Virus record (IMG/VR): IMGVR_UViG_3300045977_000087
Direction: 5' to 3' (one strand)
Length of the DNA stretch: 64,000 nucleotides
Origin: a virus
Lineage: Duplodnaviria > Heunggongvirae > Uroviricota > Caudoviricetes
Shown: piece by piece, positions 15,001 to 21,000 of the stretch
Numbering within the stretch: position 1 is the first letter of the stretch
Layout of the letters: the number at the start of each line of letters is the position of its first letter
Made by a program: the position numbers

Positions 15001-18000
15001 GTGCCAAGCACCTCTCTCTCTTTAGGGGTGAGCTCTATAGGGAGGAAAGGGTTGATTATGTTCAGGTGATACCTGTAATATTCTACCCTTGTAAGCTCAG
15101 TAATTCCCTTCTGAATTAATTTCATTTTAGTATCCATATTTATTCAATTTCTAAATCCTTCTGCCCTGCCCTAAGGTAACCCTTCTTTGTTTCTACATTA
15201 TAAATGTAATCTCCTTCATCAGGATAGGCAGCTTTAGCTGCATTCCTAAACACCTCCATATCACTCCTTTCAACATCAGGATTAAGCTGATAGTAATTAT
15301 ACCCAGAGACAGCTAAAGCACCCTCCCTAAGTTCATTAATATATGCTCTCCTTATCTCCTTAGCTGTAAGTATTATATACTTAGAAAGGTTCTCATCAGA
15401 TACTAATGGTAAATCCATGACAGTAAGTATTAATGATTTCTATTACCCTTTCTTTGGGTGGGTTTGTTGTTACTCTTGGGGTTTCCTTTGTAAAGCCTTT
15501 TAGCTTTGGGCCCAGTTATGTCACATGCACATTTTTGCTTTTTCATGGCTTAAGTAATTAGTGTTCTTTGTAATCTCGTAACTTCATTAGTCTGGTCATC
15601 ATCCTTAACATCATAAGGCTGTTGAAGACCTAACATAAAATATCTGTAAACTTCCACATTGAATCTGTGGATAAGATAGGCCTCATGTAACTGTGGCCCC
15701 CTGTCAATCTTGGGTATGAGGTAATACACTTTGTTGTACCTCTTTCTAATAAGAGTCTGAAACTCTACATCCCCCTCTGCCATCTCCCTTCTCTTAATCT
15801 CAGGGTAGATAGGGAAATTCCTCTTTAAGTCCTGTGCTGTGTCCATAGCTCCCAACCTTTAATATTAATATTAACAAAGTTAAAGAATTTAATTAAGGTT
15901 AGGGGGAAAATTTTTTTAAAATTTTGGTATGTGAACCCTATAAAATTTTTAAAAATTAATGTAAATGTGGACCATTATGAAAAACCCCCTAGCCAATCTT
16001 TAGCGAATACAATGCCCCCCCAGGCTTTGTAATCCAAAGGGGTCTCTTCCCAGCAATTTATTGTAGTGAGGCAACCCCTTTCTTGATGTAGAGTTTAATT
16101 CTAAATTTATATACTATGAAAACTTTAGCTGAAATCAAGAAAGAATTGGGTGTGGAAACTATCAACATGGATAGAGTTGTAACAGAGCAGGATGAACAAA
16201 CATCATGGCTCAAGGATTGGGACAATAATAACCGCGTTGCTATCCTCATGCATGAGGACACATACCAAGCAATCCTAGCAGACCCTGCTATTAGTACACT
16301 GGGAGTTCACTACCAGACTAAGAAAGGGGCTAATGGGAACTATGAGGCTAAGACCATAGTGATGTACAAGAAGGCAGAGTTCGTCTTGTAACTATGGGAA
16401 CAGGTTAGGACAGGCATTAAGCCTGTCCATGCTTACCTGTTAACTAAGTCTAATTAATTCGTAACAATTTAAATCTTTATATTATGTATGCAACTGACAC
16501 TTTAATGACACTTCAACAAGTAATCAAATACAATTTATGGACTGATAAATCCTATTGTGAAGAGTGGATTGTGTTATTATCACCTGATGAAGAAACTGAA
16601 GTAATCATCAACAAGAATGATGTAGAAGAATTTCTTGCTACAGACTTCAGACAAGAAGAACCTGCATTTGGATACTACACCAGTATCATTAAGACATGTA
16701 TTCAACAACATAGAATAATCAGAATGTCTTCACTGCAGCACACTGCACTGTAACTAAGAGGAGCTAACAACTCCTCTTTATTTAAGCACATAGCTTAGGA
16801 TAACATCCTAGGCTATGTGTTCTTTTTTTTCCTAGAGATAAGAGAGATAGATTAAGTGTAAAAGAGGTAGAAGAAAGTGTACTTAATTCAACCCTAGTGT
16901 AAGTGCATAAAAAGATATTAGGGCAACCCCCTATTTTATGCCTAGTAATCATAATCCTTAAATACATACAAAAATGAAAACACTTGCAGAAATCAAAGCA
17001 GCTTTAGGAGTACAAACATTGAACTTTAACAGAGTAGTTACTGAGTCAGATGAGGAGACTAGTTGGTTAAAGGATTGGAATAATGATAGCAGGGTAGCTA
17101 TCCTTATGCATGAAGATACCCTAAATGCCATTAAGGCAAATCCTGCCATAAATACCCTAGGTATTCATGAGCAGGTAAAGAAGGGAGCACAGGGAGATTA
17201 TACAGCTAAGACAATAGTTGTATATAAGCCAGCTGAGTTTGTGCTTTAATGAGTACACAACTATCACAGATATAATCTGTGGTAGTTGTTTCTTTTTTTT
17301 CTCTTTTTCAAATAGTGCAATTAGTGTTAAAAATGTAAGTAATAGTGTACAGGCAACCCCTTCATATGCTTCTATAACCTGTAATACCTATTCTTAATTG
17401 TTAAATTAGTTAAATAAATTGTTTATATAGTGGTGTTCATATTACCTTTGGAAAAGGGTAATGTGAATAGCAACCCTGTAAAGTTGGGAGGGGGGTGTGT
17501 GAGGGGGGAACCCTTAGATTCAAAAGACATTTTATTCTTACAAATGCGTGAATCTTTTGTATTAAATATGTGCTAACTAACTACCTATGTTAATTGGCAC
17601 ATTTTTATTTACCCCAAATTCTAATAGATTATTTGCTAATAGCCTTTTATTCCAATTACCCCAATTAACCCCAATTATTTCAGTAGTTTTAAATACCTCA
17701 ATTACCTCAGTTAAAATCCCATGGGGCAACCCCCTATTTTATTTATAGTATCAATCATTAATCATTTAATACACACATTTATTATGACACTAACAGAGAT
17801 TAAAGCAGAATTAGGAGTTTCAAATATTAATTTGAACAGAGTGGTAACAGAAGCTAATGAGGAAACTCAATGGTTTAAAGATTGGGATAATACAAATAGA
17901 GTAGCTATCCTAATCCATGAAGATACCTTAGCTCAAGTTAAGGATTCTACTACTCTTGGTATTCATGTACAAGAGAAGAAAGGTGCTCAAGGTAATTATA

Positions 18001-21000
18001 CTGCAAAAACTATTGTAGTTTATAAGCCAGCAGAATTTGTTCTGTAATTGCACACAACACATATGGGAGTTATTCAGCTCTCATATGTGTTTTTCTTTTT
18101 TCTAATTATTATACCTATTTTTATATGTGGAATTGTGTTAAAACAGAATTACCTGAGCCTACAGATGGTTATGATTATACTCAAAGGCTTCTTGTAGCTA
18201 TTGATGTAGATGGTATTAGGCATATAGTTGATGATGTCAAATTCATTAAAAACTATGAAGATTGGGGTGAAACTCATAGAACACCTGTATTTGTTCATCA
18301 CCCAAATTGTTATGAATATGACCAAAAGGTGTTAGAAAATGTAACTCATTGGATGTATTTAAGTACACTTCAATTACCTTAAATTAAAGTTTGCTGGAAC
18401 TTAAAACCAGCACTTTCTCTATTTTCTTAACTTCCCAGAGGAGGGAACTGTCCTAGCAAATGCTATGTGGCTAACAATCAGAAATAGTAGAATATTATGT
18501 ACCCAATTTGAGTTGTGGCGTTACCTTATTGCCTTGGTATGTGAGACCCAAAAGGAGCCTGGCAAGCATTTAATTAAGAGCTACTGCACCCATCAGTAGC
18601 TCTTTTCAATTGTAACTTTAATTTATTTACATATGGACTTAAGTAATCTTACTTCACCTGATGACAAATTAGCAGGAGCAAACTCTATCATTGAAAAGAT
18701 AGAAGATTGTATTAAATCAGCACCAAGCCCTGATGAAGGATTTGCTGTTACTATCCAAGAGAAAGTATCTGCTGTAGTGTACAATCACATCTCTTCTCTT
18801 TACAGACAAAGAGGTTGGGAATCAACTCACAGTTGTGTTGGTGAAGACAATCCATTAACAACACTTACATTTAAGCCAATACGCTAAATGTACAAAGGGC
18901 ATCATAAAGGTGCCCTTTAATTTTAATAATCATTTGATATGAAATACCCTTTAGATTTACCCGTAATGATACTTATGACAACTATCTCTTTGTTCTCATT
19001 TACATTAGCAATCTATAATTTAATAACCATCTAATAAACAAACACATGAAAAACTTATTTTTAGCAGTATTAATGACATTATCATTCACTGCATTTGCAC
19101 AAACAGGTAAAGTATATAATCTTGACAAAAAAGACACATCTTCAGTATCTTACAAAAAGACTAATGATGTAGCTATTTATCATGGTGAAAAGATGCCAGT
19201 ATATACCTCAGCAAGAGGTAAATCATTCATCTTTGTAACCTCTAAGAAATCAGGAAAACAATACAAGAAATACCTAAACTAATGAAGAAACTATTTTCAC
19301 TTTTGATAGTTGCTGTTGTTTTCATGAGCTGTACTGCTGAGGACACTAGTCCTCAGTATCTGTACAGTGATATGTATGAAAAAGGAGCAAACATGGATAA
19401 AACTGCTGTGGTTAACATAGAGTTTGAGACCACTTATAAAAATGTACAAGTCAGTGTATATGATGTTGAGGCTAAAAAGATATTATTTGTTACCAATGAT
19501 AGCAAGTTTAATATCAATTTAGATTTGACATTTTATGGCAGATATATCTTTGAGTTTCAAAGAGTTAATGGTGAGCTAATTACTCCCCAAGATGAACCTT
19601 ATACTTTTATTCACATCAAGAACCTGTCAGATAATAAGTTGATAGATGAGATGGAATATGAAGGTTGTTTATTAGGCTATAACAATAGCTTTATTGCATG
19701 GTAGTTGATAACCCTCACAGAAATGTGGGGGTTATTATTATTTTTTTTATCTTTGTTCTAAGGATAGTAACTTTAAAACAAAAAATCATGAAAAAATTAA
19801 TGTTGTTGGGGCTATTGCTCCTTAGTTTAACCACCTTTGGTCAATATGGTAAGAATAAGGATAAACCAAGCCTGTTCTATGCTGGTATTGCCAACTATGA
19901 CCTAAGACACTCTGACAATGTTGGAGTAAGTGTGGGTATCAATTATTACTGTATCTATGCTGAGGCTAATACAAATGCCATCTTCAATAGTAACAGGACT
20001 GATATTGTAAACTACAATATGGGGTATTCATTCTTCTTCTTGAATGATAATCTTGCCTTAATCCCAACTGTAGGTGTATCATGTACTGAAACTCATGGAG
20101 TTAGAAATGAGAAATTCAACACTGGATTTATCATGCAGGCTAAAGTGTATAAGCCATTATACATCTATACAGGAGTTGGTAAATTTGATGGTATGAAGAT
20201 TGGGCTTGCTTTGAAGCTTGACTAATTACTTCATATAACAGTTACTTAAGAGGCTTTAATAGCCTCTTTTGTTTTATATAATACACACCTTGGGGCAACC
20301 CCCTAGTTTATCTCAAGCAATTAACAAACTTTAAAAGATGCAATATATAACTAAACTTAAATTAGCTGCTATGCACCAGTTGTGTGATGCAGAAGATAGG
20401 AGTACAGAGTACACTATTCAGTTCCTACAAAACATGTGTAAAGTCAGCCATGATACTGTCATGGATTACCTAATGCTAAGCAATAGTGAATTAACTAAGC
20501 TTAGAAAAGATGTAAACAGCTTTGTAAAGATGTTTGCAGATGCAGAAGAAATCTTAAATTAATTAATTAAATATTTTACAAATGAAAAACACAAACACAC
20601 CTAGTCAGAATGTTATCTTAGACTTCACATCAAGTCTTACAAACTTAACAGCTAATCAAGAGCTTGCAGTGATGCCAGCTGAAATAGCTAAAAGAGCACT
20701 TAGAGCATTAGTTAGTCAGTTACATAGCACAAGCTTCAGAGATGTGAAGAATGATATTGTACATGATTTAGCTCAAACTACTACTATGGAAGAGCTTACA
20801 TCTACAATGACAGCATTCTTACAGGAAAGAGAACTTGTAGATAATGTAGTATCTGAGAATTGGGATGCATACAGAATTGATACACCTCAACCACAGGCAT
20901 CAACTATTATCTAAATTAAATTAGGGCAGAGATTTATTCTTTGCCCTTTTTTTTATCTTTTTTCAGTTATGTATTACATATTAGAAGGCAAGACACCTAT

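Follow-up and report, generated by a model that had tools for sequence, protein, structure and literature searches.

The 64,000-nucleotide (nt) stretch of viral DNA analyzed here in full (the window; IMG/VR record IMGVR_UViG_3300045977_000087, Caudoviricetes) carries three tandem copies of a gene for a protein of ~90 amino acids (aa), which open the + strand arm of the genome directly past a strand switch. Open reading frames (ORFs) on the - strand span 334 to 15855 and include the major head protein (5541-6995), the portal (8306-10723) and the large terminase (10774-12960), all with crAss-type matches in PHROGs (E < 1e-180). The strand switch lies at ~15860-16115, and the + strand arm runs from 16116 to ~56200, holding a DNA polymerase (33580-35529) and helicases, with giant - strand genes beyond it. 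Both GC and AT skew reverse at the switch, which is also the turning point of cumulative GC skew. The terminase shares 64.8% identity with the large terminase subunit (TerL) of FpV4-group phages of Flavobacterium psychrophilum, with weaker kinship to Bacteroides crAss-like phages, and the region has no near DNA match among 50,697 phage records by megablast; tblastn against the same records was also empty. By its genes, the source is an uncultured crAss-like phage related to FpV4, and its host is probably flavobacterial. The array of repeated genes and the signals that accompany them are the following:

16116..16391, + strand: paralog copy 1 (91 aa)
16974..17249, + strand: paralog copy 2 (91 aa)
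17784..18047, + strand: paralog copy 3 (87 aa)
16070..16099, + strand: promoter-like motif P1 (GGCAACCCCTTTCTTGATGTAGAGTTTAAT), 46 nt 5' of the copy 1 ATG
16922..16952, + strand: promoter-like motif P2, 52 nt 5' of the copy 2 ATG
17725..17755, + strand: promoter-like motif P4 (GGCAACCCCCTATTTTATTTATAGTATCAAT), 59 nt 5' of the copy 3 ATG
16785..16830, + strand: intrinsic terminator T1 (17-bp stem, 3-nt loop, T-run), ending the unit of copy 1 and an 89-aa ORF
17257..17300, + strand: intrinsic terminator T2 (15-bp stem, 3-nt loop, T-run)
18056..18105, + strand: intrinsic terminator T3 (16-bp stem, 4-nt loop, T-run)

The initial annotation of this DNA had proposed that the three ORFs are paralogs, and pairwise alignment bears this out with clear similarity among them. 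Protein identity to copy 1 is 74% for copy 2 and 68% for copy 3, 54 columns are invariant, and a hidden Markov model (HMM) of the family matches the three copies with E-values of 1e-44 to 1e-48. Direct-repeat families D1/D2 span the three genes. Copy 3 has indels of its own, and its true start is the ATG at 17784; a longer ORF from 17721 would cross the motif itself.

The same annotation had suggested diversifying selection, which a comparison of non-synonymous and synonymous change (dN/dS, omega) refutes, finding purifying selection instead. Between paralogs, synonymous differences are saturated (pS 0.70-0.95, with non-synonymous pN at 0.16-0.23), and omega, computable for copies 2 and 3, is ~0.09. 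L005, a 2.4-kb metagenomic contig, repeats the arrangement of the window, with a variable ORF between its first two copies and an ORF-free gap before its third; each of its three copies, set against the window ortholog, gives an omega of 0.13-0.18. Across genomes, copies cluster according to position, each window copy pairing with its same-position counterpart in L005, and since identity between paralogs (68-74%) is not above that between orthologs (70-76%), there is no sign of homogenization. Synonymous saturation together with omega values of ~0.1-0.2 thus points to old duplicates under purifying selection, each maintained separately, in a family that stays recognizable across 292 sequence clusters (described below). 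Copy number is 1, 2 or 3 across 19 related loci, and the window/L005 triplet is a clade distinct from the L003/L006 triplet, so that duplication seems to have recurred. We are confident that the array consists of three old, individually conserved copies of an arm-opening gene; the repeat is not a fast-evolving arms-race gene.

Predicted transcription signals of the array

A motif precedes every paralog, as had been noticed at the outset. The sequence GGCAACCCC occurs at seven sites in the window, all on the + strand (16070, 16922, 17352, 17725, 20294, 23639 and 31200), against 0.27 expected, and none of 100 shuffles reaches seven. Each copy has one site 44-59 nt 5' of its ATG, and sites also precede the ORFs at 20338 and 23690. 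Aligned, the window sites extend to tGGGGCAACCCCCTAnTTnATnTAnAGTAt; the motif of this lineage reads GGCAACCCC-N13-AGTAT/AGTTT, and that of relatives GGCAAAACCCTCAC-N8-AGTATTAAT (forms also written GGCAACCCCCTA... and, in relatives, CAAAACCCTCAC). Among relatives, (G)GCAAAACCC(T/A)CAC(T/C)nA-N4-(G/T)AGTAT(T/A)AA(T/C) stands 5' of nearly every family copy, with a GGCAA-to-AGTAT distance equal to that in the window. The FpV4 form, CAAAACCCTCACTTATT..., has five sites (record 393, 276, 17, 87808, 83710 (-)) on the replicative-arm strand, confined to the first ~5 kb of the equivalent arm. The motif is, as far as sequence can tell, a two-block promoter-like element specific to the clade and common within it, including the cultured FpV4, while a search of the Cellulophaga phage phi14:2 found no copy.

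Six promoter classes (SM1-SM6) have been mapped in F. psychrophilum, whose boxes include a -7 TAnnTTTG (or TAnnTTGY), sigma-54 -24/-12 elements and an extracytoplasmic function (ECF) CGT box (PMC9723704). The motif consensus, GGCAA(A/C)(A/C)CCC...AGTAT(T)AAT, contains none of the SM1-SM6 boxes, the Bacteroidetes sigma-A box included, when compared by eye with the published consensus rather than with logos. In phi14:2, the replicative module is an early class, transcribed by an injected virion RNA polymerase (RNAP) (10.1101/2020.03.07.982082). The motif is a candidate promoter for such an injected crAss-type virion RNAP; in the window, as in FpV4, it keeps to the start of the early-type arm. 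A giant virion ORF of FpV4, a 'putative structural protein' of 4,287-4,290 aa (record 33880-46743, L055), contains the sequence GLDYDIDK, similar to the catalytic motif of the phi14:2 virion RNAP, GSDFDIDK; in this clade, the polymerase would thus form one portion of a far longer fusion protein. No DFDxD was found in the giant ORFs of the window, so its virion RNAP gene would lie outside it. We know of no promoter for a crAss-type virion RNAP, and a literature search on crAss-like early promoters or FpV4 transcription found the phi14:2 study alone.

Further features of the region are:

15976..16035, + strand: strand-switch element, a promoter-like block (AAAAACCCCCTAGCCAAT...AGCGAAT) followed by a C run (from sequence; alignment A9 of 10 loci)
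16399..16441, + strand: hairpin after copy 1 without a T-run, not a canonical terminator (-24.6 kcal/mol, z -4.1)
16484..16753, + strand: an unrelated ORF of 89 aa, lying between copies 1 and 2 (from ORF calling, profile searches and comparison with relatives)
17352..17720, + strand: fourth motif (17352-17360) and an ORF-free stretch of ~370 nt, between copies 2 and 3
20294..20324, + strand: further motif copy, 5' of the unrelated ORF 20338-20562
23639..23669, + strand: further motif copy, 5' of ORF 23690-24202
31200..31230, + strand: further motif copy, the last on the + strand arm

In the initial annotation, each copy was an independent transcription unit closed by a hairpin with a 13-bp stem and a 7-8-nt loop. 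Three such hairpins with T-runs exist, but their stems measure 15-17 bp and their loops 3-4 nt. T1-T3 are stable stem-loops with a T-run 3' of a stop codon, as Rho-independent terminators are, with folding energies of -20 to -35 kcal/mol (z = -5.8 to -7.9), in a region that has 14 terminator-like sites against 4.5 expected. Independence applies to copies 2 and 3 but not to copy 1, because T1 follows the 89-aa ORF rather than copy 1, which makes the first unit bicistronic. The 89-aa ORF has zero similarity to the same-slot ORFs of L005 and L003; the slot between copies 1 and 2 thus holds variable cargo and appears to be a hypervariable position within a conserved array of cassettes.

The ORF-free stretch between copies 2 and 3 is a candidate non-coding early transcript. 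Positions 17485-17508 form a tract rich in G (TGGGAGGGGGG / TGTGAGGGGGG), and four repeats resembling TTACCCCA (a form also written TTACCCCAAT) are packed into 100 nt at 17609-17709; compared with L005, the ends of the stretch are conserved and its middle is not. A decayed fourth gene copy in 17300-17783 was considered and rejected, as neither a six-frame HMM search nor blastn gave a signal. Rfam returned chance-level matches only for the region; a weak Phe_leader match at 19704-19816, probably due to chance, overlaps a terminator.

The strand-switch element is a distinct subtype of the motif: ~12 nt further on come a run of 6-7 C and a short inverted repeat (ATACAA...TTGTAAT). Related phages keep it at the same place, and ten loci share it in all (e.g., L005 8-50, L003 3245-3285 and L030 383-425); it occurs once in L030, a contig of a Flavobacterium metagenome-assembled genome (MAG) that also bears a fusion of the family domain to a reverse transcriptase (RT). 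In some distant phages (L041 at ~4380, L044 at ~4400 and L051 at ~4440), a palindrome, GGCAA(T)nTTGCCACA, replaces or joins the motif 5' of the second family copy and could be an operator-like site.

Beyond the array, an 85-aa ORF (18125-18382) lies right after T3; no motif precedes it, and its match to DUF551 is weak and below threshold (E = 0.03). Small + strand ORFs past the cassettes (19698-20225 and 19046-19704) have N-termini that resemble signal peptides or lipoproteins (e.g., MKKLFSLLIVAVVFMSC), and their products may be surface or superinfection-exclusion proteins.

The protein family and its domain fusions

A word-indexed search found 35 clusters of the family, all of ~90 aa and all metagenomic, and placed the copy 1 protein on a metagenomic contig of 95,903 bp. 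A profile search of 1.84 billion representatives extended this to 292 clusters (50% identity) at E <= 1e-3, 101 of them at E <= 1e-10. Wherever a contig extends far enough to show it, a family gene comes first past the strand switch, beside the lysis/terminase side, in 1-3 tandem copies (L001, L003, L005-L019, L020, L022, L024 and L039-L051), and even members of only 33-39% identity (L020, L022, L024) keep this position. The three copies have no match at E <= 1 in Pfam or PHROG, and copy 2 has none in PADLOC; 87 family members matched no relevant Pfam model, and a PDB sequence search gave nothing significant (best E = 0.083). No family member was detectable in FpV4 or phi14:2. Homology of the family to the first genes of FpV4, phi14:2 or L022 was rejected, with an hhalign probability of <= 1.4%. 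On these searches, the family is undescribed, and it serves as a marker for the beginning of the early-type arm in a wide range of crAss-like phages from the environment.

Other genes found in related phages are a Tad2-like (anti-Thoeris) gene (L024 841-1161), an intein with LAGLIDADG (L022 1-1951) and, on the early arm, genes of the radical-SAM and DIT1/PvcA kinds (L020 11262-14750). The intein sits in a 1,120-aa ORF that runs off the end of the locus and is, by position, probably the terminase.

Structure prediction, which the initial annotation had suggested, yields a confident model, but no significant structural neighbor. AlphaFold models from 35 sequences (mean predicted local distance difference test, pLDDT, 79.6) and from 87 diverse members (pLDDT 96, predicted template modeling score, pTM, 0.83) have the same topology: a compact fold of ~90 aa with a helix (4-11), three strands (19-22, 28-36, 41-46), a second helix (47-55) and a β-hairpin (62-71 / 74-83), described in overview as helix, four strands, helix and β-hairpin. 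Fold searches with both models found no significant neighbor among solved or viral structures. Matches to OB-fold and single-stranded DNA-binding (SSB) proteins recur but are weak, and the family does not qualify as OB-fold SSBs, for which a five-stranded β-barrel clearly similar to SSB, RPA or PriB was required. Residues conserved across the family are K8, W31, K/R33, W35, D36, N37, R40, H46, D48, L62, K69, G74 and Y76, with W31, K/R33 and W35 alternating along one strand. The three copies have isoelectric points (pI) of 5.26-5.59 and net charges of -2.3 to -3.3 (family median pI 5.6, net charge ~-2), which is not the strong acidity, with a pI of ~4, of an Ocr-like DNA mimic.

The domain also occurs in fusions. 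In P0152, it forms the C-terminus of a retron-clade RT (L030 5872-7266, also L032-L038), whose RT part matches the PADLOC models for RT-protease, RT-TIR and RT-Toprim at 1e-87 to 1e-96. This fusion was found in one uncultured Flavobacterium MAG (L030, from a scan of bacterial genomes) and in seven metagenomic contigs. Elsewhere, the domain stands at the N-terminus, followed by transmembrane segments and a DUF559 nuclease; one protein consists of the domain plus transmembrane segments; an RHS-repeat fragment ends in the domain; and a family of ~220 aa has it in the middle, for which the bacterial genome scan found nothing. In homologs of the transmembrane-DUF559 proteins, the N-terminal position is taken by HU, WYL or zinc-finger/zinc-ribbon domains. 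On a crAss-like contig (L052), two 435-aa ORFs flank the strand switch on opposite strands, at 2224-3531 (-) and 6001-7308 (+); the latter is a domain-transmembrane-DUF559 fusion (P0185), so that this architecture is phage-borne as well as chromosomal (L053).

Directly 5' of the RT fusion, a 12-nt perfect inverted repeat brackets a unit of ~120 nt (fold z = -5.3), which is 93-100% conserved and starts exactly at the first repeat, while upstream sequence is at ~50% identity in most locus pairs; because the upstream flanks differ between loci, the unit looks mobile. Within the unit lies CAAAACCCTCACT, identical to the first block of the phage motif. Rfam gave only chance-level matches for the locus. 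L030 may hold a retron, a kind of element that would also make multicopy single-stranded DNA (msDNA); it combines a retron-clade RT (1e-96) with a structured, repeat-flanked unit directly upstream. The co-occurrence of the domain fusion and CAAAACCCTCACT raises the idea that the domain binds the CAAAACCCTCACT sequence. That the domain always travels with the motif was considered and downgraded, given a DUF559 fusion that lacks the motif and a second motif before an unrelated gene. These two findings also weaken the idea of binding, as does FpV4, which has the motif without the protein.

Possible function and known counterparts

Early, high-output expression of the paralogs, which the initial annotation had assumed, is plausible by analogy with phi14:2, since the genes open the arm that leads into the DNA polymerase and helicases, and we rate it as somewhat probable. 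In the explanation that we favor, the short, high-output transcription units would fire first after DNA entry and supply a protein needed in large, stoichiometric amounts. The paralogs would not be redundant; a split of the function among them or assembly into mixed oligomers is possible. The protein would bind a ligand through a conserved aromatic and basic surface (K8, W31, K/R33, W35, R40, H46, K69, Y76); the ligand would most likely be nucleic acid, possibly the early promoter or leader element itself, in which case the protein would act as a regulator or cofactor of the early class. Taken as a whole, anatomy plus function, this is the best explanation we can offer, and it falls a little short of probable.

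Its parts differ in strength. Binding to nucleic acid, the mechanism that we put first, is doubtful; the hints for it are the W/K/W alternation on one strand and the conserved R40, H46 and Y76, the weak OB-fold and SSB matches, the retron-type RT fusion with CAAAACCCTCACT in its unit, and the HU, WYL and zinc-finger domains at the equivalent N-terminal position of transmembrane-DUF559 proteins. Specific binding to the promoter is unlikely. A still bolder version is quite improbable: the ~90-aa domain would read the early promoter block (GGCAA[A/C][A/C]CCC...), the block would be the promoter of the injected RNAP, and a Flavobacterium retron-type system would have captured both as a phage-sensing decoy, with the domain fused to the RT and the promoter block placed inside the non-coding RNA (ncRNA) or msDNA.

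Several observations weigh against the favored explanation. Assignment to the early class is by analogy with phi14:2, a phage with neither the family nor the motif. FpV4 has the motif and no detectable family member; thus, the motif must be usable without the protein. The protein is also mildly acidic, and all structural matches are below significance. The L030 contig has a second phage-like element, matching window 15976-16035, 5' of an unrelated gene, and the chromosomal DUF559 fusion (L053) has no motif upstream; the motif may simply be a promoter type common to mobile elements of these hosts.

The main competing idea, in line with the suggestion of the initial annotation, is a host-takeover or anti-defence protein that is expressed first and binds a host defence sensor or effector, or the RNA polymerase, stoichiometrically, with the copies supplying dose. 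The first position on the early arm, the multiple strong cassettes and the hypervariable slot among them, which recalls accessory or anti-defence islands, are consistent with it, as are the homologous domains in defence-like host layouts (the retron-type RT fusion and the domain-transmembrane proteins with or without DUF559) and the Tad2-like gene nearby in a related phage. Anti-defence genes, however, are usually patchy and fast-evolving, and this family is under strong purifying selection and very broadly conserved. The phage protein also matches no PADLOC or other known family, its charge is not that of a DNA mimic, and FpV4 and phi14:2 do without it. We give this idea a minor but appreciable chance.

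We think it less likely still that the protein is an essential, abundant one with another core role, such as protection or organization of the incoming genome or the start of replication near the switch; the host fusions would then use the like domain as a sensor, and the motif in the retron unit would be merely a promoter. Purifying selection on every copy and the fixed place beside the switch, where cumulative GC skew turns, fit such a role, and so do the host fusions, which put the domain where sensor domains usually sit, and the second phage-like cis element in the same host contig. Oligomerization is unsupported, though, and FpV4, close in its virion genes, lacks the family, which is therefore not universally essential; variation between one and three copies speaks more for an effect of dose than for a fixed structural role. 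Plain dosage amplification, with functionally identical copies that only raise expression, would agree with that variation among related phages and with triplets that seem independent in two lineages. It is nevertheless very improbable, since synonymous sites are saturated and yet distinct orthologous lineages are kept, without homogenization, and copy 3 has indels of its own.

Whatever the protein does, the motif is possibly more important than the gene, as a sharp conserved element unlike host promoters, and the domain shared between a retron-type RT and nuclease/membrane fusions hints at phage-host interplay. Small multi-copy early cassettes are familiar in phages; what is new here is an undescribed family with a confident fold that lacks a significant neighbor. 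The gene 0.3 protein of T7 (Ocr) is a strongly acidic DNA mimic, encoded in single copy by the first gene on the entering end and made early, abundantly and in stoichiometric amounts. The present family is likewise small and first on the entering end, but it is mildly acidic, multi-copy and without structural likeness to known proteins. In the host-takeover module of SPO1, small early genes lie in short units, each with a strong early promoter and terminator; those genes are mostly unrelated to each other, whereas the units of the window repeat one conserved gene. Phage N4 has early promoters for an injected virion RNAP, with host SSB as a cofactor, and an abundant small single-strand-binding cofactor is one possible parallel for the family protein. 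The motif does not qualify as an N4-type hairpin promoter, which would call for a conserved 5-7 bp stem with a 3-nt loop, set at a fixed distance from the start site in all promoters: four of the seven window motif sites scored as a 5-6 bp hairpin centered on GGGG-CAA-CCCC in a scan that covered five sites only, and none forms at 16070, at 17352 or in relatives that carry CAAAACCCTCAC.

Among single-gene retrons (PADLOC types I-C, XI and XII), P0152 is alike in build, with its C-terminal domain where Toprim, protease or TIR sit. The window, unlike retrons, has no RT, and the link consists of the shared domain and the shared block CAAAACCCTCACT only. Cellulophaga phi14:2 resembles the window in its divergent switch and in a replicative arm that opens with many small ORFs. 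From the earliest time point on, long intergenic stretches among its opening genes yield very abundant transcripts (10.1101/2020.03.07.982082), and these RNAs parallel the ORF-free unit at 17352-17720. Without the family or the motif, phi14:2 differs from the window, which has a sharp motif before its first genes; the absence is in line with the original study, which detected no common motif upstream of early transcripts there (Drobysheva et al., 10.1101/2020.03.07.982082). FpV4 and its relatives (Fipvunavirus) are the closest cultured relatives. The first gene of FpV4 is a small ORF of ~87 aa, unrelated by sequence to the triplicated family, but the motif is common to FpV4 and the window; with FpV4 and F. 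psychrophilum as a culturable pair, the promoter specificity of crAss-type early transcription is directly testable.

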